From: Patescibacteria group bacterium
Lineage (GTDB): Bacteria; Patescibacteriota; Patescibacteriia; Patescibacteriales; UBA12465
Assembly (NCBI GenBank): GCA_038245255.1
Contig: JBBRSQ010000001.1
Location: 2,335-66,334 of the forward strand
Direction of reading: 5' to 3'
DNA: 64,000 nt
The notes under the pieces were generated by a model. It did not search any database, had not been told where the DNA came from, and saw only the letters and a list, made by a program, of their open reading frames with translations. This document shows, in pieces, positions 3,042 to 54,300 of this stretch; the first letter of the stretch is position 1; each line of letters opens with the position of its first letter. A program made the translations under genes and the position numbers.

Positions 3042-4737
3042 ATTTAGTCCAATCTTCAGCGATTTCGACTAAAATCTTAAATGGTGCCTCAAGAATGAAA
3101 TCAAAAATAAATATAAATACATTAATCTTTGAAACATTGTTTGATAACCACTTGCCAACTAAAATTATCGGCATGTAAAACAAATCGATAATAAAAGTAA
3201 ACAAATTCTCTCTTTTTTCGACAATTAAAAGGTCTTTAACGCCTTTGGTAACAATGATGCTAAAAAAGCTAACAAAGGCCAAGAAGAATAAGAATATCGT
3301 TATACTAACCCAATTAAAGTTAATAATTAGTAAAAGTTTAATAATTAAATAAATTGAAACTGTAAAGGAAGCCGCATAAATTAAACTAAATATCGCGCTA
3401 ATAAAGCCTTTACGCCCAACTGGCTTGCGTAAAGTAATCGGTTGTTTTTTTTCATTTCCAACAAAAGCAATTTCCTTAATTCCATTTATAATTTTGTCGG
3501 TATTATCCTCCTGTGGAGTTCTGGTTAAAAGAACGATAAAAAATAGAAGAACGGCTGGAAAAGAGATATTAATTCCTAGTGCGAATATATTTAAAGGCTC
3601 ATGAAACCAATTAATGGCCGGAAGCTCAATTGCAATTGCAAAAATAGATTTCGTTAAAAAAATATAAATAATGCTTCGAATGGCGGCGCGCCATAGTTTT
3701 CCTTTGGCCTTTTTATATTTTAAATTACATATTTTTCTAACACTAGCAATAAAATTCTTTTCGCTTTTCTGAAGCTCACCATAAACTTTCGTCGGATCAC
3801 TCTCAATTGTTTCCGCTAAGACTGTGAAATAAAGCGCATAAACCTGTACTAGTTTATCAAGTTGGCGCGTTAAAGGATGATTCAGCTGTACTTTAACTAT
3901 AGCATTAAGTTCGTGCATCTTTGCGGCAATCGCTTTTATTTTTTTATCATCATCAGCGTCTAAAACATCTTTATCACGTAAATCAATCCAATCGCTATTA
4001 TAATATTTAAATAAGACAAAACCGAGCATGTCTTCGTCTAGTTTTAAATAGGTTCGACCAATACTCAAATAAATTTGAATATCCAAATCATCGCCATAAG
4101 GCAAATCAGCTGGCAATTTAATATCTCTAACTAGGGTATCAAAAAGGTTATTTACAATTATCTGTTTAACGCGGTTAGGCGCAAGATTCTCTTCAATTTC
4201 GCAAGCTGCTAAAGTTAAAAGCCAAGTGACTAAATGATTTTTTTCATTAATTAAATCTTTCGCCCTATTAATATCAGTCTTCAGACTGAGTGAGGCATTA
4301 ATTTTCAAAACCATCTGATCCTTCAGGCGAATGTATTTTTCCAGTAAAACTGCAATTTCCCGTAGCTTTGTTTCTGGTATTTTATTGTTCGGCAAATAAC
4401 TAGCTCTAATAAGCTCAACCAGCAAGTGGTTGGCGATACCAACACTGTCAGTTTCTCTAACGACGCCTTCAATCATTACCTGCCGACGCAGAATCCGAGC
4501 TATCGCATTTTTACGAAGCAGATGTTCTTCTTCATAGTCAACAGCATTACGAACCTTTTCATAAAAAAAAGCCACCCGTGAAATTATCGTCGAAACTTTA
4601 ATTTTCGTGATATCATCAAAGAGTTGTTCTTTAATATTTTGTTCGCTGTAGATTACTTGAAAAAGTTTTTTTGTGTTCTCATTAATCTCCACCGGTTGCA
4701 AATCTTCGGCTCTTTTAATTAGATTTGGGCTAACCAT
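3010..4737 (-). CDS. hypothetical membrane protein with a soluble N-terminal domain and a C-terminal multi-TM region
   Basis: 575-aa ORF. The C-terminal third is strongly hydrophobic. No motif was recognised. Confidence 0.5.
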   Translation of the reverse strand: MVSPNLIKRAEDLQPVEINENTKKLFQVIYSEQNIKEQLFDDITKIKVSTIISRVAFFYEKVRNAVDYEEEHLLRKNAIARILRRQVMIEGVVRETDSVGIANHLLVELIRASYLPNNKIPETKLREIAVLLEKYIRLKDQMVLKINASLSLKTDINRAKDLINEKNHLVTWLLTLAACEIEENLAPNRVKQIIVNNLFDTLVRDIKLPADLPYGDDLDIQIYLSIGRTYLKLDEDMLGFVLFKYYNSDWIDLRDKDVLDADDDKKIKAIAAKMHELNAIVKVQLNHPLTRQLDKLVQVYALYFTVLAETIESDPTKVYGELQKSEKNFIASVRKICNLKYKKAKGKLWRAAIRSIIYIFLTKSIFAIAIELPAINWFHEPLNIFALGINISFPAVLLFFIVLLTRTPQEDNTDKIINGIKEIAFVGNEKKQPITLRKPVGRKGFISAIFSLIYAASFTVSIYLIIKLLLIINFNWVSITIFLFFLAFVSFFSIIVTKGVKDLLIVEKRENLFTFIIDLFYMPIILVGKWLSNNVSKINVFIFIFDFILEAPFKILVEIAEDWTKYVRERRENME

Positions 4738-5668: not shown

Positions 5669-5709
5669 CAAATAGCGAACGATGCTTCTGCGCTCGCACA
5701 AATTATTAT

Positions 5710-6132
5710 ATGGCAAAAAAAATAAAGACAAAAATTAAATTGCAAATCGCTGGCGGCCAAGCTAACCCAGCTCCTCCAGTCGGTCCAGCTTTAGGACAGC
5801 ACGGCCTTAATATTGCTGAATTCTGTAAGAGTTTCAATGATAAAACTAAGGACAAAATGGGTGATATTATTCCTGTTGAAATCACTGTTTATGAAGACAG
5901 AACTTATGATTTTATCCTTAAAACTTCCCCTGCTTCAGAATTGATTAAAAAAGCGGCCGGAATTAAAAAAGGATCAGGTAAGCCTCTAACCGAAAAAGTC
6001 GGTTCAATTACTAAAGCCCAGCTAGAAGAAATCGCAAAAACTAAAATGCCTGATTTAAGCGCTAATGACCTCGAAGCTGCTAAAAGCATCATTGCGGGCA
6101 CGGCTCGACAAATGGGTGTTGATATTAAATAA
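5710..6132 (+). CDS. rplK: 50S ribosomal protein L11
   Basis: [36 protein letters not shown] is the L11 signature. Confidence 0.96.
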
Positions 6133-7445: not shown

Positions 7446-7958
7446 TTATTTCTTAGTAACTGTTTCTCTTTTTTTTACTGGCACGGTTTTTGCTTTTGTC
7501 GGAGTTTTTTTTACACTTTTCACGGCCTTTTTCGCTTTTATCCCTGTCTTTTTTGTTTTTACAGGATTACTTAAATAAACCGGCACTAGCCTGCTTTCAT
7601 AATCAGCGATGGCTTTTTGAAGTCCCTGGACGGCCATTACAGAACAATGGACTTTTTGTTGTGGTAAACCACCAAGCTCAGATACAACTTTTTGCCATTT
7701 ATATTTCTTTGCTTGATCAATGGTCATCCCTTTGACTTTTTCAGTCATAATTGAAGCAGTCGCAATATTTGAAGCACAACCAAATGATAAAAATTTTACA
7801 TCTTTAATTCTCCCCTTTTCAACTTTCAAGAAAAAATCAAGCTGGTCACCGCAAACCATATTCCCAATTTGTGCATAACCATCCGGTTTTTTCATTTCTC
7901 CGATATTCTGAGGCTTCAGAAAATGATTAATTGTTTTTTTTGTATAATTTAACGCCAT
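7446..7958 (-). CDS. iscU: IscU/NifU-like Fe-S cluster scaffold with a Lys/Ala/Thr-rich basic C-terminal tail
   Basis: N-terminal U-type scaffold with three conserved Cys (MVCGDQL, FGCAS, HCSVM). The last ~40 aa (KTKKTGIKAKKAVKSVKKTPTKAKTVPVKKRETVTKK) form a histone-H1-like tail. Confidence 0.85.
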   Translation of the reverse strand: MALNYTKKTINHFLKPQNIGEMKKPDGYAQIGNMVCGDQLDFFLKVEKGRIKDVKFLSFGCASNIATASIMTEKVKGMTIDQAKKYKWQKVVSELGGLPQQKVHCSVMAVQGLQKAIADYESRLVPVYLSNPVKTKKTGIKAKKAVKSVKKTPTKAKTVPVKKRETVTKK

Positions 7959-7992
7959 ATATTTTATTTATGTTTTTTAAATTTTATCTAAT

Positions 7993-9144
7993 TTATTTAA
8001 TCGGACTAAAACTTCGCAGTCTTTTAACGGTATCCTTTAAACATTTAATAGTATAGTCTATTTCTTTCTTAGTGTTATATCTGCCAAGTGAAAAACGGAT
8101 ATTACTATTTAAGAAATTTTTATTTAGACCAATCGCTGATAAAACAGTTGAAGCGCGTAAATTTGTTGCTGAACATGCTGAACCGGTTGAAACACAAATC
8201 CCTTTATATGATAAGTCCATTAATATCGCTTCCCCTTCAATTGAGCCAAACATCACATTTAAATTTGCCGGAACTCTTTTAATAGCCGAACCATTTAATT
8301 TAACTCCGGAAATTTCCTTTTGCATTTGTTTCCAAAAATAATCCTTCAAAATTTTTATTTTTTTTAAATATGTAGTTCTTTCTTTATAAGCTAACTCAAG
8401 CGCACTAACGGCGCCAATAATTCCGGGCATGTTATACGTTCCGGCTCTGACCCCGTTTTCTTGTCCACCGCCAATTATAAGCGGCTTAATTTTGATTCCT
8501 TTACCGATATAAGCAATCCCAACCCCCTTTGGACCATAAAATTTATGAGCCGAAAGACTCAGCAAATCAATGCCCATTTTCTTGATATCGATTTGTAAAT
8601 ACGGAATAGCTTGGACGGCATCAGTATGAAAATAGGCGCCGAATTTATGAGCAATTTTAGCCAGTGCGCTAATATCTTGAATAGTACCAATTTCATTATT
8701 AACCATCATAACCGAAACCAAAACGGTTTCTTTATCGATTATTTTCTCGAGCGCTTCGGGGCTCACAATCCCTTCCGCATTAACAGGCGCAAATTCAACC
8801 GTAAAACCGGCGCGAGTAAGTTCATTGGCCGACTCTTTAACACAAGGATGTTCAATATTTGAAATAATTATCTTTTTACCCTTATTTTGATTAGCCAGCG
8901 CTACACCTTTAACTATTAAGTTATTTGATTCGGTTGCACTTGATGTAAATATTACGCTTTCAGACTCGCCACCTAAAAGCTTAGCGACTCGTTCTTTTGC
9001 GTCCTGAAGGGCTATAAAGGCCTCCTGTCCTAAAGAATGAATAGAAGAGGCGTTTCCATACTTTTCAAGGAAATAAGGCTTCATTTTTGCCAATATTCTC
9101 TCGTCGAGACGAGTGGTCGCCGCATTATCTAAATATACTTTCAT
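7993..9144 (-). CDS. iscS: cysteine desulfurase (class V aminotransferase, IscS/NifS)
   Basis: PLP-binding lysine region SLSAHKFYGPKGVGIAY, the active-site cysteine loop (STGSACS) and a NifS-like N-terminus. Confidence 0.9.
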   Translation of the reverse strand: MKVYLDNAATTRLDERILAKMKPYFLEKYGNASSIHSLGQEAFIALQDAKERVAKLLGGESESVIFTSSATESNNLIVKGVALANQNKGKKIIISNIEHPCVKESANELTRAGFTVEFAPVNAEGIVSPEALEKIIDKETVLVSVMMVNNEIGTIQDISALAKIAHKFGAYFHTDAVQAIPYLQIDIKKMGIDLLSLSAHKFYGPKGVGIAYIGKGIKIKPLIIGGGQENGVRAGTYNMPGIIGAVSALELAYKERTTYLKKIKILKDYFWKQMQKEISGVKLNGSAIKRVPANLNVMFGSIEGEAILMDLSYKGICVSTGSACSATNLRASTVLSAIGLNKNFLNSNIRFSLGRYNTKKEIDYTIKCLKDTVKRLRSFSPIK

Positions 9145-11645: not shown

Positions 11646-13409
11646 TTAACACCTAAACGAGACATAATCAAGTATCGGATTTTTTGAGTTTTTCTTTACT
11701 GATAAGATTGACGACTTAGTAGCTTTATACTTGGTATGTAAAACTTGAGCCGATAAATTATTATTTTTTGCCCAGTTGTAATATTCCATCATTTCGATAT
11801 TTTCATGGGCGCGCCTAGTTGTTCGTGTTTTATCAATTGCATATAGTCCTTCTAACCGTTTCTGACGAATGGCTTTAGTAGTCGGAATTGGTTGTCCGCC
11901 ACCACCAAGACAACCGCCCGGGCAAGCCATAACTTCAATGTAATGATATTTATGAATTGTAGGAAGGACTTTAGAAATATTTCCAATTCCATTAACAACC
12001 CCAACTTTTATTTTCTTGCCATCTAAATTTACAACTGCCTCTTTAAATCCGGCCAGTCCTCTAACTTCTTTAAATTCAAGATGACTGTCGCAAGTTTTAT
12101 TTTTGCTGCTCTTGCAAATTAAAGCATTGGCTGATCTTAAAGCTGATTCCATAACGCCGCCCGAAGCACCGTAAATAGCCGCCGCCCCCGAACCATTATT
12201 AAATAATTTCTCAAGTGGCGAATCAGGAAGTTGATTAAAATTTATATTATTTTTCTTTATTAGAAAAGCTAATTCCCTGGTGGTTAAAACGAAGTCAACT
12301 AAAGGTTGACCATTTAATTTCAGTTCACTACGAGCGGCTTCATATTTTTTTGCAGTACAAGGGACTATCGAGACGACAATTATATTCTTGGCCTTAATTT
12401 TTTGTTTTTTGGCCCAATAGGTTTTAATCGCTCCCGCTAAGTGAGTTTGCGGAGAACGCGCCGAAGTTAAATTTGGAATTAATTCCGGATGATAAAATTC
12501 AACATACGCGACCCAAGCAGGACAGCAAGATGTCATCAAGGGAAAAACAGATTTCTTATTCTTTAGTCGTTCAAGCAACTCCTCGGCCTCGGTGATGGTA
12601 GTTATGTCGGCGCCGAAATTTACATCAAAAACATGATTAAAACCGATTTTTTTTAAAGCTGTCACTATTTTCCCTTCACAATTAGTTCCATATGGCATAG
12701 AAAATTCTTCCCCGAGTGAAACTCTTACCGAAGGAGCAAATTGCGCAACAACTACTTTATTTTTATTTTTTAATAATAACTCAACTTGCGCCCAAGCCAT
12801 TTGTTCTTGCGCCGCCGCGACTGGGCAATGAAGTGTGCATTGGCCGCAGTAAATGCAAGCCGTATCTTTATCTAAAACTGGAACTACTTCTTGATTTATG
12901 CCGACCCCATCCATTTTTAAATAGTTTATTTTCTGCACTTCGCTGCATGCGTTGATACAATTTTTACAATCAATACACTGCGACCCGTCAATCTCAACCG
13001 CATTGGCAAATTTATATGTCTTTCGTTTAACTTTTCGATTTTTAAAATGTTTAATATCAACTTTATATTTAGCGGCCAATTTTAATAGCTCGCAATTATA
13101 ACGTAGAGTGCAAGTCGCACATTTTAGTACATGCTGGCCAAATAATAATTCTAGATTAACCTTTCGAGCTTTTTTAACTCGAGGGCTTTCAGTTAAAATA
13201 TCCATCCCGTTTTCAGCTATAGTTGAACAAGCCGTAAATAAATTATCGCGCCCTATTATTTCCACTACACAAATACGACAATTTGCTTGCACGCTTAAGT
13301 CGGGATGATGACAAAGGGCTGGCACCTCAAATCCACTTTGAGTAGCCACGTCTAAAATAGATTGCCCTTGCTTAAAATTTATTTTTTTGCCGTTAATTTT
13401 CAGACTCAT
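11646..13409 (-). CDS. hydA: [FeFe]-hydrogenase catalytic subunit (HydA-like) with an N-terminal 2Fe-2S domain and 4Fe-4S ferredoxin domains
   Basis: H-cluster motifs L1 TSCCPAW, L2 VPCTAKKYE and L3 MACPGGCLGGGGQP. N-terminal NuoG-like Cys cluster and two CxxCxxCxxxCP ferredoxin motifs. Confidence 0.85.
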   Translation of the reverse strand: MSLKINGKKINFKQGQSILDVATQSGFEVPALCHHPDLSVQANCRICVVEIIGRDNLFTACSTIAENGMDILTESPRVKKARKVNLELLFGQHVLKCATCTLRYNCELLKLAAKYKVDIKHFKNRKVKRKTYKFANAVEIDGSQCIDCKNCINACSEVQKINYLKMDGVGINQEVVPVLDKDTACIYCGQCTLHCPVAAAQEQMAWAQVELLLKNKNKVVVAQFAPSVRVSLGEEFSMPYGTNCEGKIVTALKKIGFNHVFDVNFGADITTITEAEELLERLKNKKSVFPLMTSCCPAWVAYVEFYHPELIPNLTSARSPQTHLAGAIKTYWAKKQKIKAKNIIVVSIVPCTAKKYEAARSELKLNGQPLVDFVLTTRELAFLIKKNNINFNQLPDSPLEKLFNNGSGAAAIYGASGGVMESALRSANALICKSSKNKTCDSHLEFKEVRGLAGFKEAVVNLDGKKIKVGVVNGIGNISKVLPTIHKYHYIEVMACPGGCLGGGGQPIPTTKAIRQKRLEGLYAIDKTRTTRRAHENIEMMEYYNWAKNNNLSAQVLHTKYKATKSSILSVKKNSKNPILDYVSFRC

Positions 13410-47451: not shown

Positions 47452-48123
47452 ATGAAAAAACATTTAATTTTCCTAGCAACGATTCTGCTGGCAAGTATTA
47501 ATTTGACTCTGCTAGCAAATGAATCTGTAAAATCAGATAATCTGAAAATTATTCAAAACCAAAACGGAAAATATTACATTATCCGAAGTTCTCAAGCATT
47601 TGAATCCGTAAATGGTTTTCTGCGCGTACCGATTGTTGATTCGCTCAACTACATTGACCCAGCGATTCCTCAAAATATTTGGGTTAAAGCTTATCTGGAC
47701 AAAAATATCATGTTCGAGATGCGTCATACTGCACGTAGTTTAATAATAATCGAGGACTGGCGTCTCAAGATTTTTAATCGTTTGGATTACCATTACGCCT
47801 CCTTAAATAATGACAGCCTCAAACTGCATACCGACTACAACATTTCGGGCGTAAACGATTCTCAGGCGACTAGCGGAGGCACAATTTTGCTAATCTGTAT
47901 ATTTATCGCCGGTCTAATATTTGGATCAATAATCAGTAGCCCTAGGGGTTTTAAATTAATGCTATTATTACTCGCCGGTTTAATCACAATGCTATTTTTC
48001 TACTTCTTTTTCGTCGGGACAATCTACGCTCGCTTATTCCCCCTCGTTCCGTTTATCGTCGGAAATTTAGTAATGCTCAGTATCTTAAAATTATTTCGAA
48101 CTCTAAAGAAAAACAGGTCATGA
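47452..48123 (+). CDS. hypothetical signal-peptide protein with a C-terminal TM anchor (paralog 1)
   Basis: Shares the motif VDSLNYIDPAIPQNIWVKAYL with the next gene. Has a C-terminal hydrophobic pair. Confidence 0.55.
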   Translation: MKKHLIFLATILLASINLTLLANESVKSDNLKIIQNQNGKYYIIRSSQAFESVNGFLRVPIVDSLNYIDPAIPQNIWVKAYLDKNIMFEMRHTARSLIIIEDWRLKIFNRLDYHYASLNNDSLKLHTDYNISGVNDSQATSGGTILLICIFIAGLIFGSIISSPRGFKLMLLLLAGLITMLFFYFFFVGTIYARLFPLVPFIVGNLVMLSILKLFRTLKKNRS

Positions 48124-48857
48124 AAAAGAAAATTATTTTCGGAATTATTCTCGGGTTAGTAATGTTTAGCTTCAATTGCTTTGCTCAAAAATTTGAGCAA
48201 GAAGATCCCCTGTCACCAATGATTGATGATACAATTATGTTGGCTTCAGATAGTCTGGAAATTGTTCAGATTAAGGAAAATAAATTCTTCGTTGTTTGCA
48301 CTACTTGCGAAGTGCTAAGTAGCCACGGATATATGCGGCGAATAATTGTTGATTCACTCTCATACATTTCACCTGACATACCAAGAGATTATTGGCTAGA
48401 AGCCTACAGCACCAAGCAGGTAACTTATAAACATAAGTTATTGTTGAGCCGACTCGAACTAAAAAATTGGAAGCCAATTATGACTTACGTCTGGCAGGAC
48501 TCTGAAGCTATCTACGCAAGCGATAGTCTTAAGTCAATAAGCACATCCTACATATCCTCAGAAAACTACAACAGCCTATTAAGCTCTAAGTTTTCGGCCA
48601 ACTACTTTTTACTGTTTGTAGTAATAGTCGGATTCATCTGGTTTATAATGTCACTTGATACGGGGATAAAAAAAAGCCTCCATGCTTACGGAGAGCTGGC
48701 AACTGGATTAGGTATAGCGATTATTTTCTATTTTACTTTTGGAAAAACTTTAGCCGCTTTTATCTTGCCTCTGATAGCCTTTGTATTAGGGGCATTTATA
48801 CCATTAATAATTACTAGACTGATTAAAATACTCATTAGATCCGTTAGTAAAAATTAA
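48120..48857 (+). CDS. hypothetical signal-peptide protein with a C-terminal TM anchor (paralog 2)
   Basis: VDSLSYISPDIPRDYWLEAYS, with the same architecture as the previous gene. Its start overlaps the previous gene's stop (ATGA). Confidence 0.55.
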   Translation: MKKKIIFGIILGLVMFSFNCFAQKFEQEDPLSPMIDDTIMLASDSLEIVQIKENKFFVVCTTCEVLSSHGYMRRIIVDSLSYISPDIPRDYWLEAYSTKQVTYKHKLLLSRLELKNWKPIMTYVWQDSEAIYASDSLKSISTSYISSENYNSLLSSKFSANYFLLFVVIVGFIWFIMSLDTGIKKSLHAYGELATGLGIAIIFYFTFGKTLAAFILPLIAFVLGAFIPLIITRLIKILIRSVSKN

Positions 48858-49814: not shown

Positions 49815-50489
49815 TTATTTAAATAAAACTGGTACTTTTACTGAAGCATCATTTTCTGGCAAACCGGAAGGATTATCTTTAGAAATTACTAAATAACCAC
49901 TAGTCGCCATTGTCAAATATGTTAACTCAGAAGTAAATCTAACCGGCTTTTCAGTCATCCAGTCATCTTGAGCGGTACCGTAATGAGCGACAATTAAATT
50001 ATTATTATTGTCATATAATTTAACTGGCAAAGTCGCTTCAAAAAACCAATTACCAATAGCCGTGCCTTCAATTTTTAAAGGTGAGCTAACAAGTTCGTTT
50101 TGTTTTGGACTAACAACGACTACTTCATTAGAGAAGCTCGCTTGAGGTTCATCTCCTGCCTGAGTGCTAGTCACAATATCCATTTCACATTTTTCCTCCC
50201 AAACACGTAAACACTTCTCTTTTAAATCACACCAAGAATAACCAGCCGAGGCAATACAACCATGTTCGTCTCGGTCATTTCCGACTAAAGATTCTCCCTG
50301 ACTACCAGGGCAAAGTGTTGTTGGCCTGGCTGCCTTTGGATTTCCGTGCTTAGCCCATTGACTATCAGTACAGACCCAATTGTCTTCCTGACTAGTGGCT
50401 CGTAAAACAATTGCACTAAAGATAATAACACCAACTACTCCTAACAATAAATAAGATTTTTTCATAAAATTATTTTTATTAATTACCAA
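49815..50489 (-). CDS. hypothetical secreted Cys-rich protein
   Basis: Signal peptide MKKSYLLLGVVGVIIFSAIV and 8 Cys in the mature part. The start is likely the ATG at 50465; the track start is a TTG. Lies immediately downstream of the promoter at the left inverted-repeat terminus. Confidence 0.55.
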   Translation of the reverse strand: MVINKNNFMKKSYLLLGVVGVIIFSAIVLRATSQEDNWVCTDSQWAKHGNPKAARPTTLCPGSQGESLVGNDRDEHGCIASAGYSWCDLKEKCLRVWEEKCEMDIVTSTQAGDEPQASFSNEVVVVSPKQNELVSSPLKIEGTAIGNWFFEATLPVKLYDNNNNLIVAHYGTAQDDWMTEKPVRFTSELTYLTMATSGYLVISKDNPSGLPENDASVKVPVLFK

Positions 50490-50494
50490 CTTAT

Positions 50495-50849
50495 GGTGTC
50501 TCTATTGTACCAAGTTAGAACCTATTTTCAAAACAAATGATGTCGCACGCGCGAAGCGCGTGGTGAAGCGAAACTAAATCGTACGCTCGGAGAATCGCCC
50601 TGCCACCGCCTCGCTTCGCTCGGCAACTCCGAAAGAAAAAACACTCCTTGCATTTCTGATTTGGCGGGGGTGAAATTTCTTTTGAAAAAGGAAAGGGTGT
50701 TTTTCTTTCGGGGTTCTGCCCGAAAAGATATTCGGACAGGCGGAGTGCAAATGCAAATGTGGAACGCGAGCGGAAAATTTTGCGGAGGACTGGGGGTTTG
50801 GGCGAAAGGACTCCGCAAAATTCTGTTTCGCGTATTTGATTTTGTGGGG
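50495..50849. repeat. left copy of a 355-bp GC-rich inverted repeat (IR-L), likely a structured non-coding element
   Basis: Reverse-complement match to 53816..54170 with only 2 mismatches. About 55-60% GC in a ~35% GC context. Contains internal hairpins (cacgcgc-gaa-gcgcgtg; ttttgcggag...ctccgcaaaa) and a long-range 15-nt complementary pair (ccgaaagaaaaaaca / tgtttttctttcgg). Confidence 0.9.
50504..50537 (-). promoter_or_regulatory. outward-facing extended -10 promoter at the IR-L outer terminus, reading into the Cys-rich secreted protein gene
   Basis: On the minus strand TTGAAA, 16-nt spacer, TGgTACAAT (-10 hexamer at 50509-50504). The predicted transcription start near 50497 is ~32 nt upstream of the ATG at 50465. 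Confidence 0.5.
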
Positions 50850-50906
50850 TGCAGGCAACTAAGAAAAGAAGATACTATCATATCAAAAAACAAGGATTTA
50901 TTTATT

Positions 50907-51536
50907 TTATGATAATTTTATTTTTCCAAAGCTATTTTCTTTAATTTCACTTGATAAATTTAATCTTTCTCTAACTTTATTATTTATTTCTTGAATTGTT
51001 TCTTTTAAATCTCCATTGTTATTGATAAAATCGATAGAAATACCAAGTTCTTTAGCCTGTTTAATGGCTTCATTTTTTTCTAATTCTAATTGCTCTTGTA
51101 TATAATTAAAATCTATAACTCTATCATTTCTTTCAGAAATATCTTTTATTCTTCTATTGAGAATATTCTCTGGAGTTGAATTAACAACGAAAATCGCTTT
51201 CATTTGCTCATAATCTTCATTACGAATATTCCTCACAGAAAAATCTTTACCTTCTACTTCAAAATAAATAAAATGACCATCTAAAATTCTAATTGTATAA
51301 GGATCATTTTTATCTTCCTCATAAATTATTCTAAACATTTCTGGTCTATATTTTCCACGAACATCATCTGGTAGTTTTCTAAATTCTTCTGGAGAAATAT
51401 CACCAGCAAGATGGCACAGAATTGGTAAACCGCGAATTCTAAGAGCCTTATGACTTTCATCATTCAATCTCTCTACAAGTCCTTTAATTACAGAAGTTTT
51501 TCCAGTACCAGGTATTCCAGCAACGTAAATAAACAT
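50907..51536 (-). CDS. P-loop NTPase, predicted (deoxy)nucleotide/nucleoside kinase-like (AAA/adenylate-kinase-like fold)
   Basis: Walker A GIPGTGKTS at the extreme N-terminus. Small 209-aa kinase-like size. Confidence 0.65.
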   Translation of the reverse strand: MFIYVAGIPGTGKTSVIKGLVERLNDESHKALRIRGLPILCHLAGDISPEEFRKLPDDVRGKYRPEMFRIIYEEDKNDPYTIRILDGHFIYFEVEGKDFSVRNIRNEDYEQMKAIFVVNSTPENILNRRIKDISERNDRVIDFNYIQEQLELEKNEAIKQAKELGISIDFINNNGDLKETIQEINNKVRERLNLSSEIKENSFGKIKLS

Positions 51537-51539
51537 AAA

Positions 51540-52112
51540 TTATTGTGTATTAAAAATACATTCCCCTGTTAAATTATTCTGAGTTTTATATTCATCCCAA
51601 AGTTTTAAATACGCTTTATTTATTCTTTCATTTTTTTCTAAACCTAATTCTAAAATAGATTTTTCTATATTATCTTCTTCTCCTTCTATTTCAATAAAAT
51701 AACCAAAAGGTAATTCATCAACAACAAAATCACAATTATTTATATTTTCCAGTCTGTATCTTCTCTTCTCAAAAATATGTTCGATTGGGTATTCTAAAGC
51801 AAAGAACATGCCTCTTATACTATTTATTTTTTCATCATCAACATTCTCTAACAAAAACTCATGCTCATCTCTTATAAATAAGTTCCCCAGATTTTCTTCT
51901 TTCTTATTTTTAACCTTTACTGTTACATAAGCTTTTCTACTATCTTTTTCTATTACTTCTTTTATTCTAGGGAAAATTCCCTTTTCCATATTCTTATATT
52001 CATTCGTAAAAAAACCATATGTTTTTTCAAACTGAAACTTACTTTTATCTTTTACAAATTTGTCAAAAATTTCTTTATTTATTTTTAATTTAATTTCTAT
52101 TTCTTTTTTCAT
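51540..52112 (-). CDS. CYTH-domain (triphosphate tunnel metalloenzyme / class IV adenylate cyclase-like) protein
   Basis: N-terminal EIEIKLKI matches the ExExK CYTH signature. The ~190-aa length fits a single CYTH domain. Confidence 0.55.
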   Translation of the reverse strand: MKKEIEIKLKINKEIFDKFVKDKSKFQFEKTYGFFTNEYKNMEKGIFPRIKEVIEKDSRKAYVTVKVKNKKEENLGNLFIRDEHEFLLENVDDEKINSIRGMFFALEYPIEHIFEKRRYRLENINNCDFVVDELPFGYFIEIEGEEDNIEKSILELGLEKNERINKAYLKLWDEYKTQNNLTGECIFNTQ

Positions 52113-52132
52113 ATTTTAAAAATTAAAAAATA

Positions 52133-52996
52133 TTAATAATAACCTCCAGATTTTTTAGGATAGGGTTTTAAATACTCAGTTCTATCTTTTATTTTTGCTT
52201 CCAAAAAACACCTTCTTCTGTCCCAACAACAAGGACAAGTTCCACAATGAATTTTACTTGATTTTATACAACTTCTTGTTTTTGAAAGATCTAGACCATT
52301 TTCTTCACAATAAGTGATTAAAACATCCTTGTCGTAATAATTACCCAATTCTACTTCAATAGGTAAAGATATATATTGAAAGTTATAATCGTTTAAAATA
52401 TGGCAAGTTTCTAGATTAAGCATTCTCTGCCAAGTAAGAGAACAATGAAAAGAAGTATCGCTAGCAACATGTGCAATAAAAACAGTGTTAACATTCATTC
52501 CTTTATTTTTTAAAGAAATTGCATACTCCATACCCGTAAGAAATATAATAGAGTTTCTAGCTGGATAAGATACATGGGCTGAATGTTCTTTTTTATAAAA
52601 TTTCTTTTTTACTTCTCTTAAATCATCTTTGTATTCCAAGGCGGGTGTATTAACTTTAATTTCTTTTGTTTTGTGGTAAAGTTTTGGAAATTTTTTAGCA
52701 AAAAGTTTATCATAATAATTAATTGATTTTTTTTCCCATTTATAACAATTTTGACCTCTATTTATAAAAAATGGAAACACTTGATAACCAAACTCATTCA
52801 TCAAAATAAAAATATTTGACACCGCATCTGCTCCACCAGACATACAACACACAACAGCACTACCCTTTGGAGGCATTTTTACAACATAATTTCTTTTATC
52901 TATAAAAATTTTATTTAGGACTTTTACAACTTTTAAATCTTCGTTTATTTTATCCTCAATTTTTATTTTGCCTTTATTCTTGATTATTTTGATCAT
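52133..52996 (-). CDS. PP-loop ATPase (adenine-nucleotide alpha-hydrolase), QueC-like with a C-terminal Cys cluster
   Basis: SGGADAVS PP-loop after a ~45-aa N-terminal extension. C-terminal CIKSSKIHCGTCPCCWDRRRC resembles the QueC zinc-binding motif. Confidence 0.6.
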   Translation of the reverse strand: MIKIIKNKGKIKIEDKINEDLKVVKVLNKIFIDKRNYVVKMPPKGSAVVCCMSGGADAVSNIFILMNEFGYQVFPFFINRGQNCYKWEKKSINYYDKLFAKKFPKLYHKTKEIKVNTPALEYKDDLREVKKKFYKKEHSAHVSYPARNSIIFLTGMEYAISLKNKGMNVNTVFIAHVASDTSFHCSLTWQRMLNLETCHILNDYNFQYISLPIEVELGNYYDKDVLITYCEENGLDLSKTRSCIKSSKIHCGTCPCCWDRRRCFLEAKIKDRTEYLKPYPKKSGGYY

Positions 52997-53720
52997 ATTT
53001 TTTATAACTATTAATTATTTTTTTAGCATCCTCAATTGTTTCTTGATAAATATGAGCATCAGTAATCATTCCATCCAAAGAACCGATCCAAATTTTTGTG
53101 TTTAGTTTAGTTTCTAATCTCTTTGCTACCTCTTCAGATAGTAATGCAATCGCAGCAAAATTACCTCCAGCTTTCTGGTAGGCATCTATTGATCGTGCAT
53201 TAAAAATTGTATTTAAATGATAGCCATTCTGATTATCAATTTTAATTAATCTGAATTGAATAGTTGTAATACAGGGCAGATAATCATCTTTGGGTCTTTC
53301 AAGAGTTCTTTCATAATCTTCTTTTCTGACAAAGCTCATTATAGCTTTTTTGCTTTCTGGTATTTCTGCAAGCCTATCCACCACAAAATCAAGCATTTTC
53401 CATTCTTTGATTCTTGCATAATAGCTTTGACTTCCATCTGAGAATGATGGAACAATATCAAAGTCATGCATAATTTCTTTATTAAAAGTTAAATCAATAA
53501 TTGCATCTATGTTTTCTTTATCCCCATATCGACTAAGCAATTGATCTGGATAAATTTGGGAGTTTGATCTAACTCTAATATTTTGAAGACATAATCTATT
53601 TCTGCCTTCATCAGAAGTTATGTTCCCATTTTTTAAAATTACTTCTACTAAACTTAACCAGGTACTCCCCAATACTTCACCATAAATCAAAAGGCCAAAA
53701 GGCTCTATTTTTATGTACAT
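52974..53720 (-). CDS. thymidylate-synthase-fold enzyme (ThyA-like pyrimidine C5 methylase/hydroxymethylase homolog)
   Basis: SKKAIMSFV, YLPCITTIQFRL and ARSIDAYQKAGGNFAAIALL align to the ThyA SRRIIVSAW, LAPCHAFFQFYV and [20 protein letters not shown] motifs. The catalytic Cys and the uracil-specifying Asn are retained. Confidence 0.7.
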   Translation of the reverse strand: MYIKIEPFGLLIYGEVLGSTWLSLVEVILKNGNITSDEGRNRLCLQNIRVRSNSQIYPDQLLSRYGDKENIDAIIDLTFNKEIMHDFDIVPSFSDGSQSYYARIKEWKMLDFVVDRLAEIPESKKAIMSFVRKEDYERTLERPKDDYLPCITTIQFRLIKIDNQNGYHLNTIFNARSIDAYQKAGGNFAAIALLSEEVAKRLETKLNTKIWIGSLDGMITDAHIYQETIEDAKKIINSYKKYDQNNQE

Positions 53721-53764
53721 ACAATGTTTTTATGTTAAAAATTTTAATAATTTAAACTAACTTC

Positions 53765-53791
53765 AATATACCATATTTTTAAAAAATCCAA
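53765..53791 (-). promoter_or_regulatory. extended -10 promoter for the four-gene cassette operon
   Basis: On the minus strand TTGGAT, then TGgTATATT (53773-53765). Lies ~45 nt upstream of the ATG at 53720, just inside IR-R. Confidence 0.45.
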
Positions 53792-53815
53792 AAATATAAT
53801 TTGAAATCCTATTCG

Positions 53816-54170
53816 CCCCACAAAATCAAATACGCGAAACAGAATTTTGCGGAGTCCTTTCGCCCAAACCCCCAGTCCTCCGCAAAATTTTCCGCTCGCG
53901 TTCCACATTTGCATTTGCACTCCGCCTGTCCGAATATCTATTCGGGCAGAACCCCGAAAGAAAAACACCCTTTCCTTTTTCAAAAGAAATTTCACCCCCG
54001 CCAAATCAGAAATGCAAGGAGTGTTTTTTCTTTCGGGGTTGCCGAGCGAAGCGAGGCGGTGGCAGGGCGATTCTCCGAGCGTACGATTTAGTTTCGCTTC
54101 ACCACGCGCTTCGCGCGTGCGACATCATTTGTTTTGAAAATAGGTTCTAACTTGGTACAATAGAGACACC
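53816..54170. repeat. right copy of the 355-bp GC-rich inverted repeat (IR-R)
   Basis: Reverse complement of 50495..50849 with 2 mismatches. An outward-facing TTGAAA-N16-TGgTACAAT promoter sits at 54134..54161 on the + strand. Confidence 0.9.
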
Positions 54171-54215
54171 AGAAACGAACTAGACGGCTTTTTCAAAGCC
54201 GTCTAGTTCGTTTCT
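54171..54215. repeat. 45-bp perfect palindrome (21-bp arms, 3-nt loop) between IR-R and the tRNA-Leu 3' end; likely a bidirectional terminator or recombination site
   Basis: agaaacgaactagacggcttt-ttc-aaagccgtctagttcgtttct. Exact complementarity over 21 bp. Shares its last nucleotide with the tRNA 3' end. Confidence 0.85.
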
Positions 54216-54300
54216 GGTGCCCGAGGGGGGATTTGAACCCCCATGGGATTTCTCCCGCAGCGTTCTGAACACTGCGTGTCTACCGTTTCACCACCCGTGC
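54215..54300 (-). tRNA. tRNA-Leu (anticodon CAG), type II with a long variable arm, CCA encoded
   Basis: Minus strand reads GCACGGGTGGTGAAACGGTAGACACGCAGTGTTCAGAACGCTGCGGGAGAAATCCCATGGGGGTTCAAATCCCCCCTCGGGCACCA. Folds into a cloverleaf with a D-arm, anticodon loop TTCAGAA, variable stem CGGGA/TCCC, T-arm GGGGGTTCAAATCCCCC and a 7-bp acceptor stem with one A-G mismatch. Confidence 0.85.

Follow-up and report, generated by a model that had tools for sequence, protein, structure and literature searches.

Integrative elements moved by large serine recombinases (LSRs), such as those of the phage serine integrases, the SCC/Ccr elements and the XisF element, use an enzyme that combines Resolvase, Recombinase and Zn_ribbon_recom domains. 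They insert at specific sites, leave a short identical core at both junctions, carry accessory cargo and can be recognised by the empty site in relatives. The bacteria of the Candidate Phyla Radiation (CPR, Patescibacteria) have tiny genomes and few recognised mobile elements. Here we analyse a stretch of 64,000 nucleotides (nt) from a Patescibacteria group bacterium (GCA_038245255.1, contig JBBRSQ010000001.1, positions 2,335 to 66,334), referred to as the window, in which four genes lie between two long inverted repeats beside a tRNA-Leu gene. We conclude that positions 50491-54219 of the window are probably a degenerate member, devoid of its recombinase, of a family of LSR integrative elements widespread in CPR/Patescibacteria, inserted at the 3' CACCA of tRNA-Leu(CAG). 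The window would hold a decayed copy, and the main interest lies in the family behind it.

Other described systems resemble parts of this arrangement. The C segment of phage P1 and the G segment of phage Mu are stretches of about 3 kb between inverted repeats, which in P1 measure 0.6 kb. Recombination takes place at sites on their outer ends, and the serine recombinase, Cin or Gin, is encoded just outside. Both enzymes are small invertases that work with an enhancer and Fis and switch the reading frames of tail fibres. The SSV-type archaeal integrases are tyrosine recombinases that insert at a tRNA gene and in doing so divide their own gene into two parts. Integron attC sites and the single-strand origins of rolling-circle replication act as folded single strands, and their structure is conserved as the sequence drifts. 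Lastly, the elements named tycheposons lie between partial tRNA copies, and 474 of 501 possess a tRNA-associated tyrosine recombinase (Hackl et al., bioRxiv 10.1101/2020.12.28.424599).

The repeat module R and the recombinase found beside it

Two arms, at 50491-50849 (plus strand) and 53816-54174 (minus strand), form a 359-nt inverted repeat that is 99% complementary, with three mismatches (50493, 50628 and 50725) and a spacer of 2,966 nt; no other long repeat occurs in the window. The original prediction, which had singled out this locus from the letters of the window, described the same repeat less 4 nt, as 355 bp with two mismatches. The arms have a GC content of 48% and are two copies of a module that we call R. 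The left copy, defined by repeat search and family alignments, has the R+ orientation (5'-TTATGGTGTCTCTATTGTACC...GTGGGG-3'), with its outer end toward a Gmad2-like gene and its inner end toward the cargo. The right copy, defined by repeat search and a covariance model (R1, 155 bits), reads R+ on the minus strand.

The outer flanks of the two arms are unique and different from each other. Among the contigs used for comparison (designated by L-numbers, Logan metagenome contigs among them), L001 (Logan, SRR19962014) holds the interior with the same 30-mer inverted at each end, L140 (SRR19962012) has 77 nt of R fused to the cargo by a junction identical to that of the window, and L141 (SRR15443081) terminates precisely where repeat and cargo meet. 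Because the arms differ internally and in their flanks, and three other assemblies support the same junction, the assembly artefact against which the original prediction had cautioned is very unlikely.

Further copies of the repeat, for which a search had been proposed, are found in two CPR genomes and in at least 120 metagenome contigs. A genome scan located a 26-mer of R in one Berkelbacteria and one Vogelbacteria genome, where R is 79-87% identical over 119-200 nt, an identity that would be far above what housekeeping genes share across these lineages. The metagenome contigs were gathered with a degenerate R pattern, which had no match in IMG/VR; R likewise gave no match in the INPHARED phages or the PLSDB plasmids. 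The stretch GTCGCACGCGCGAAGCGCGTGGTGAAGCGAAAC has the look of a type I CRISPR repeat, an idea dropped when the genome scan returned no arrays, only R copies.

Among the matches listed, 14 contigs carry a convergent R+...R- pair with a spacing of 2.1-10.9 kb (the window, L014, L021, L051, L053, L088, L116, L118, L130, L133, L122, L098, L078 and L081) and none carries a direct pair. In 13 of these 14 pairs the two arms match each other at 99-100% identity over 206-487 nt; the arms of L014, the exception, have diverged. Across elements, R copies are only about 80% identical. The genes between paired copies are varied and include ABC transporters, CsoR with a Cu-ATPase, C5 and N4/N6 DNA methyltransferases and type III restriction genes. 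No transposase was seen beside R at other loci among the sampled cargo and flanking open reading frames (ORFs). Many contigs end inside R.

The recombinase that recurs beside R is an LSR. Searches with two family proteins (tblastn) detect it in 34 R loci among the matches listed, about one quarter, mostly flush with the outer end of R. These enzymes contain Resolvase, Recombinase and Zn_ribbon_recom domains, measure 517-522 amino acids in relatives and have CcrB and XisF as nearest NCBIfam models, both under cut-off. In the majority arrangement the LSR is directed away from R, with an inverted copy of its last ~45 codons between its start and R, and where a tRNA is visible the 3' end of such an LSR runs into the 3' end of that tRNA. 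In L088, for example, the last 149 nt of the LSR are repeated in inverted orientation beside R (arms 4191-4339 and 5909-6057, 98% identity) and the ORF ends within the antisense of tRNA-Gly. The overlap with a tRNA 3' end recurs in L068 (Leu-GAG), L086 (Leu-CAA), L110 (Val-GAC) and L092 (Glu). L092 appears to have a simple form, in which a tRNA is followed by the LSR and some 5 kb of cargo, with only one R, at the far end. In a second arrangement, seen at few loci (L034, L114), the LSR reads into R, and the aligned part of the LSR stops near R position 1.

If the 3' end of the LSR ORF is called S, junctions of the attP type (S/core/R) are present in L034 and L114 and as internal copies in L088 and L053. 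The idea of a long palindromic attP, with extended dyad symmetry linking S and R, was dropped at a z-score of only 0.5-1.6. A trace of movement comes from L086 and L110, which have in common a 2-kb LSR segment of 94% identity starting exactly past the CACCA of Leu-CAA in one contig and of Val-GAC in the other. We read this boundary as direct evidence of mobility, with the crossover at the tRNA 3' end. In the same two contigs (L086 5050-5220, L110 6490-6660), the tRNA-side copy of the LSR end is 99.4% identical to the R-side inverted copy of the other contig and the collinear copies are 94% identical, which hints at exchange between inverted LSR-end copies.

The plan of the family places the LSR gene at one end of the element; where it points away from R and a tRNA is visible, its last codons cross into the antisense of that tRNA's 3' end. 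Many members possess a second, inverted S/core/R junction between the LSR start and the cargo; the LSR body then lies between two oppositely oriented copies of its own 3' end, and the cargo between near-identical R copies in opposite orientation. The LSR would integrate a circle bearing S/core/R into tRNA 3' ends. In members with two arcs and three core junctions, recombination of the outer pair, which is direct, would lead to excision, and recombination of adjacent pairs, which are inverted, to inversion of either arc. A flip of the LSR arc would connect the recombinase to the R promoter or disconnect it. The identity of the arms within a pair may stem from gene conversion or from recent formation.

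The window element: junctions, proposed scar, candidate empty site and cargo

As originally stated, a tRNA-Leu(CAG) gene stands next to the right repeat; a tRNA search places this sole tRNA of the window at 54215-54300 on the minus strand. It is the proposed integration target, and its 3' CACCA (54215-54219) would be the junction core. The same core occurs at the left outer junction (50494-50498, minus strand), which takes the attR-type form R-/CACCA/TAAGTTGG and was identified by its sequence, by the core at the tRNA end and by comparison with family junctions. A target-site duplication, reported missing before, is indeed absent: the flanks ...ACCAAC/TTATGGTG and CACCAGAA/ACGAAC contain no direct repeat. 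The shared CACCA has instead the appearance of the short junction identity expected of a serine-integrase core.

A perfect palindrome occupies 54167-54219; it shares 8 nt with the end of the right arm and 5 nt (CACCA) with the end of the tRNA. The original prediction had recognised it as perfect and given it 45 bp; its length is 53 nt (25 + 3 + 25). On the plus strand it reads CACCA + GAAACGAACTAGACGGCTTT / TTC / AAAGCCGTCTAGTTCGTTTC + TGGTG. Its arm matches real LSR 3' ends beside R at 20 of 21 positions in L118 and L069 and at 23 of 25 in L083. On the strength of this match and of a full-length counterpart in L088, the palindrome looks like two inverted copies of the last 20 nt of the LSR ORF, each with its core, and thus like the scar of a deleted LSR gene. 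We read its halves as an attP-type junction (S/core/R) beside R and an attL-type junction (tRNA/core/S) beside the tRNA, mutually inverted. The whole would be a miniature of the L088 arrangement minus the LSR body, whose deletion from between the two S copies would have left the perfect palindrome.

This interpretation applies to the window only, not to the palindromes of other loci. L014 and L035 display an S-to-R hybrid at a GC palindrome common to S and R, and they appear to have lost the LSR in a different way from the window. In L098 the same terminator-like palindrome of about 50 nt occurs twice (98-151 and 12726-12779), one copy standing between tRNA-Arg and R- and the other some 1.5 kb beyond the R+ arm.

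Read on the minus strand from the tRNA side, the locus runs tRNA-Leu...GGGCACCA / GAAACGAACTAGACGGCTTT / gaa / AAAGCCGTCTAGTTCGTTTC / TGGTG / R+, and continues with a promoter-like site, the thymidylate-synthase-like (TS-like), QueC-like, CYTH-like and kinase-like genes / R- / CACCA / TAAGTTGG...ATG of the Gmad2-like gene. The lack of an integrase noted at the outset is borne out for the family type, since tblastn with two family LSRs, a search aimed at the LSR family only, found none in the window even at E<=10. The same search, by way of the shared N-terminal Resolvase domain, was negative for a small invertase at E<=10, with no invertase-specific search made. No transposase is found among the four cargo ORFs, all otherwise assigned; the remaining ORFs of the window were not scanned. 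The window copy would now be fixed unless an LSR acts in trans.

A candidate for the empty site proposed as a check is present in relatives. In L138, L139 and L136 the locus is syntenic and the element absent, with a Gmad2-like protein 66% identical to that of the window. The order in these relatives is TypA, RNase HII, x, tRNA-Leu(CAG), tRNA-Val(CAC), Gmad2-like, a 285-amino-acid protein ... CysS, Dus, and in L138 about 100 nt separate the tRNA-Leu end from the Gmad2-like ATG. The expected site is found in this respect and departs from expectation in two others, the relatives being distant and an extra tRNA-Val(CAC) lying 5 nt past tRNA-Leu(CAG) and 22 nt ahead of the Gmad2-like gene (L138 5815-6002, L139 1986-2172). 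The arrival of the element may have removed tRNA-Val, or integration may have taken place at tRNA-Val and been followed by fusion to tRNA-Leu. The closest relative has a 94%-identical Gmad2-like protein (P0121), for which no contig was found, and the empty site therefore rests on relatives of 66% identity.

Composition also sets the block apart. The interior has 26.9% GC against a mean of 35.4% (standard deviation 1.0, minimum 32.9) in 110 other 3-kb segments, more than 8 standard deviations under the window mean. At third codon positions the cargo has 12-20% GC and the genes around it 26-38%. The AT-rich four-gene cassette of the original prediction is thereby confirmed, and its acquisition as a block is supported by both the deviant composition and the syntenic relatives without the element. 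The cargo would be a nucleotide-modifying operon from a CPR donor of lower GC content.

The interior consists of four co-directional ORFs on the minus strand. The TS-like gene (52974-53720, 248 amino acids) encodes a protein of the thymidylate-synthase fold that matches far below the ThyA equivalog cut-offs (39.7 bits against an NCBIfam cut-off of 174.55). The QueC-like gene (52133-52996, 287 amino acids) encodes a PP-loop ATPase, a non-canonical QueC by its profile match (16.9 bits against 150.3). Judged by these scores, the two proteins would share only a fold family with ThyA and QueC and would not be the canonical enzymes. The third gene (51540-52112, 190 amino acids) is CYTH-like, of the triphosphate tunnel fold, by a weak match below the Pfam cut-off, and its homologues in L006 and L011 are recorded as CYTH. 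The fourth (50907-51536, 209 amino acids) encodes a P-loop protein resembling nucleoside monophosphate kinases and, among these, the archaeal-type adenylate kinase. A possible cargo promoter, the extended -10-like TGGTATATT at 53765-53773 (minus strand), lies upstream of the TS-like gene; it was read from the sequence and is absent from the output of the consensus scan.

The only PDB sequence match of the QueC-like protein is a weak one to Cap9 (9nto_B, E 6e-4, over the last 44 residues). Faint matches of the same protein to QatC appear in PADLOC and NCBIfam. A tie to defence-type QueC-like enzymes is weak but recurs. The kinase-like protein has weak PDB sequence matches to adenylate kinases, in line with its archaeal resemblance, and with only these two signals the PDB searches were rejected as a key to the function of the cargo. 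Our best guess, suggested by its fit with the accessory and defence-type cargo of sister elements, is that the four genes may form a pathway making or salvaging a modified nucleotide.

A specific link between R and this cassette was considered and dropped. TS-like homologues of 62-78% identity number in the hundreds throughout Patescibacteria, and the TS/QueC(/CYTH/kinase) cluster occurs in varied neighbourhoods without an inverted repeat in L002, L006, L008 and L012, in none of which the R covariance model finds a match. Conversely, the four cargo genes of the window occur in none of 120 R loci among the matches listed. With the cassette found without R and R without the cassette, the four genes are therefore merely the cargo of this element. 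Many contigs with TS homologues are about 3 kb long, which R does not explain in the cases checked; those of L006 and L007 break at 242-nt direct repeats.

Some of these loci have features of their own. L006 (GCA_036681025.1) holds the same four-gene cluster between rpoD and pheS, flanked by 242-nt direct repeats (5672-5913 and 8793-9034, 86% identity) that duplicate the 3' end of rpoD, with a fragment resembling the GyrB C-terminus directly before the second copy; the cassette seems to move there by a different route, dragging gene ends along. In L012 (GCA_054038795.1), GC-rich intergenic direct-repeat families, 79-90% identical, at 2690-2911, 3826-3969, 4336-4632 and 7782-8043 surround a TS/Thymidylate_kin/QueC/CYTH cluster and neighbouring genes. 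They were rejected as relatives of R, their similarity to it not being significant. L003 (Amesbacteria-like) carries at 12171-12744 an LSR of the family type, 56% identical to that of L053, about 4.5 kb downstream of a TS/QueC pair, at a locus where R is not detectable. Elsewhere in the window, two adjacent overlapping genes (47452-48123 and 48120-48857) encode similar-looking membrane proteins of 223 and 245 amino acids, both of which have a signal peptide and a 'Q/ENxKFY/FV' motif and are multi-pass in their C-terminal region; the two genes are probably a tandem duplication.

The fold of R and the weighing of explanations

From the outside inward, R consists of the core, an outward promoter on the opposite strand, a GC palindrome, a fold core of about 180 nt and a variable tail. 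The promoter of the left arm (50504-50531, minus strand), sigma70-like with the form TTGAAA-16-(TGg)TACAAT, an extended -10 and 10 of 12 consensus matches, points at the Gmad2-like gene (ATG at 50468). That of the right arm (54134-54161, plus strand), also found by consensus scan, points at the palindrome and the tRNA antisense, where complete elements hold the LSR gene. The -35/-10 pattern is kept across R subfamilies despite sequence change. In complete elements this promoter is aimed at the LSR, and in the window its left copy may have taken over transcription of the Gmad2-like gene. The GC palindrome P0 (CACGCGC-GAA-GCGCGTG, 50546-50562, plus strand) was delimited from sequence and family comparison; it served as search anchor and is invariant among the matches by construction.

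The fold core (50580-50759, plus strand; R1, 156 bits, and covariation) has four helices, with a closing helix P1 around hairpins P2, P3 and P4. The best copies reach up to 209 bits, compared with 155-156 for the two window copies, in which P1 has partly decayed. When 50 distinct copies are aligned with the covariance model, pairing holds in 92.8% of cells, and both partners vary in 27 of the 39 pairs; none of 500 shuffles reaches the observed values, and slid controls give 0.05-0.09 against 0.24. Long-range swaps in P1 are clean (GCCCCGCCAC/GTGGCGGGGC against GTTCCGCCAC/GTGGCGGAAC and CCCCACGCAC/GTGCGTGGGG). With an alignment made by MAFFT only, both the percentage paired and the covariation score lie beyond 500 shuffles; default RNAalifold on that alignment gives two hairpins only, and a hand-seeded covariance model was required for the full fold. 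Minimum-free-energy folds of single divergent copies return the same P1-P4 layout. The fold of R is conserved through compensatory change. Against Rfam 15, the window arms give nothing at gathering score and only chance-level microRNA matches at E<=10, and the better-preserved copy of L088 likewise gives nothing beyond chance. The folded core would act as a single-stranded nucleic acid, RNA or DNA, in the life cycle of the element.

The original prediction had left the block to an unknown mechanism of acquisition. A strong candidate now exists, in which the arms are the family-specific non-coding module of an LSR integrative element, and its verdict that the locus is neither a standard insertion sequence or composite transposon nor a standard island is upheld. 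Several points nevertheless weigh against this explanation. The window has no LSR, so that its membership of the family relies on scar, junctions and R, and the scar amounts to just 20 nt and the core per arm. Palindromes adjacent to tRNAs in L018, L028, L030, L098 and L135 match no available LSR end and may simply be terminators of the ordinary kind. At this site the window lacks tRNA-Val(CAC), and for that reason a one-step insertion at tRNA-Leu does not match the sequence of the relatives, which are themselves distant, as the 66% identity of the Gmad2-like protein tells. The family was gathered by a fixed sequence pattern, which biases both its breadth and its invariant positions, and the covariation figures that are strongest come from an alignment fitted to that same structure. 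The wobble pairs have no strand asymmetry (53 G-U against 47 A-C); with such equal counts they favour neither strand and neither RNA nor DNA, and their use to find the folding strand was abandoned. No circular form, excision product or alternative orientation was seen in short-read assemblies, which break at the arms. The LSR explanation also leaves the origin of the second inverted junction and of the long identical arms unexplained.

Among the alternatives, the one that builds on the RecA-mediated inversion suggested by the original prediction, in which RecA or an invertase would flip the four-gene block as a switch, is improbable. Long and highly identical repeats are good substrates for RecA, 359 nt at 99% identity would suit it, and it may invert the 2.97-kb segment; the near-identity of arms in 13 of 14 listed pairs fits ongoing recombination or conversion, and the layout recalls the C segment of phage P1. 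However, the outward promoter is present in each arm alike, and the cargo may possess one too, so that a flip would change little. An invertible segment would also leave the tRNA junction, the foreign composition, the candidate empty site and the origin of the structure unexplained, and one orientation only was seen, in short-read assemblies that cannot show the other.

It is quite improbable that R is mainly a host feature, whether a structured non-coding RNA gene or a leader or terminator with a cis-regulatory role, of which two copies happen to surround an acquired operon and whose link to the LSR is incidental. The strong fold with its covariation and the richness of R in GC within an AT-rich genome would agree with it, and the lack of an Rfam match would make this a new RNA. 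On the other hand, the only two copies in the window both belong to the foreign block, the syntenic relatives have no R at the locus, and R, which is physically joined to LSR ends and tRNA junctions, passes among CPR phyla with an identity of about 80-87%. Strand asymmetry, too, is missing.

We regard as very improbable a composite or non-autonomous DDE-type transposon, with R a long terminal inverted repeat, akin to a miniature inverted-repeat transposable element, moved in trans by an unseen transposase and capturing cargo between its ends. Such an origin would accommodate the near-identical terminal repeats, the cargo that differs among pairs, the lack of a recombinase within the pair and the many contigs that break inside R, as for a multi-copy element. 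It is contradicted by the lack of a target-site duplication in the window, by LSR being the sole recurring recombinase beside R, where no transposase was seen among the sampled ORFs, by the coincidence of the outer end of R with the LSR stop codon or the tRNA CACCA, by the single R of L092 and by an arm length that varies with the pair (206-487 nt), unlike defined transposon ends. A collapsed or chimeric repeat, or a palindromic contig made by the assembler, is hardly credible: an arm does reach the contig end in several metagenome contigs, and L130 is exactly arm, cargo and arm, but the window arms have different unique flanks and three differing positions, L001 and L140 contain the junction at which L141 breaks, and internal pairs are flanked by unique sequence in L088, L118 and L021.

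Going beyond the assignment of the window to the LSR family, R could be a functional folded module of an unrecognised class of serine-recombinase elements, its four-helix junction sited right beside the recombination core, with the double-inverted layout as a platform for inversion or cassette exchange, a suggestion that we hold as tentative and rather doubtful. If true, the inverted sites would shield the cargo from deletion and yet permit its swapping. The presence of R both ways would give each DNA strand one functional copy, which would be relevant were the element to move as single-stranded DNA among naturally competent CPR cells.

Comparison with known systems

One short pattern search yielded at least 120 contigs of a single CPR element family, which would carry restriction-modification, metal-resistance, transporter and nucleotide-modifying genes among CPR phyla by way of tRNA 3' ends. 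Its near-identical inverted arms break short-read assemblies and hide cargo on orphan contigs of 2-7 kb, and this affects the reading of metagenome-assembled CPR genomes. The family is of relevance to the biology of mobile elements and to the serine integrases used in genome engineering, where att-site logic, directionality and cassette exchange matter.

With the P1 C and Mu G segments the family shares a unique segment of about 3 kb within inverted repeats and a serine recombinase gene just outside. Unlike Cin and Gin, its recombinase is a large one that goes with integration at tRNAs; the cargo follows no fixed type, and only one orientation was seen. The SSV-type integrases are alike in their tRNA target and in an att site inside the integrase ORF; in the R family the enzyme is a serine recombinase, and the exchange affects just its last few codons. 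An analogy with attC sites and single-strand origins may be drawn for the folded module alone; the family differs from them in having no IntI, no Rep and no tandem array of direct cassettes. Tycheposons also bring cargo to the tRNA genes of a bacterium with a streamlined genome, and their integrase-less remnants accumulate by tRNAs (bioRxiv 10.1101/2020.12.28.424599). Unlike them, the R family uses an LSR and a core of about 5 nt and places its cargo between long inverted repeats with a folded module; the far end of the window element has the 5-nt core and no partial tRNA copy, and so falls outside the definition of a tycheposon.

The closest likeness remains that to the LSR integrative elements, with which the family shares its recombinase domains, site-specific insertion, short core and accessory cargo and, with the distant relatives as candidates, an empty site. 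In our literature search we met no account of LSR elements laid out in this doubly inverted way, nor of a folded module beside an att site in CPR, and the family is apparently an undescribed variant. Unlike in known LSR elements, the integrase ORF crosses the att core, so that its last codons vary with the junction, and many members possess a second, inverted attP-type junction, with integrase body and cargo each enclosed in long inverted repeats. The P' side bears a conserved folded module of about 260 nt, and many different tRNA 3' ends are used. The recombinases of the family appear to exploit the near-universal CACCA end of tRNAs, together with a non-coding partner that is conserved in structure, not in sequence, and is unusually large.

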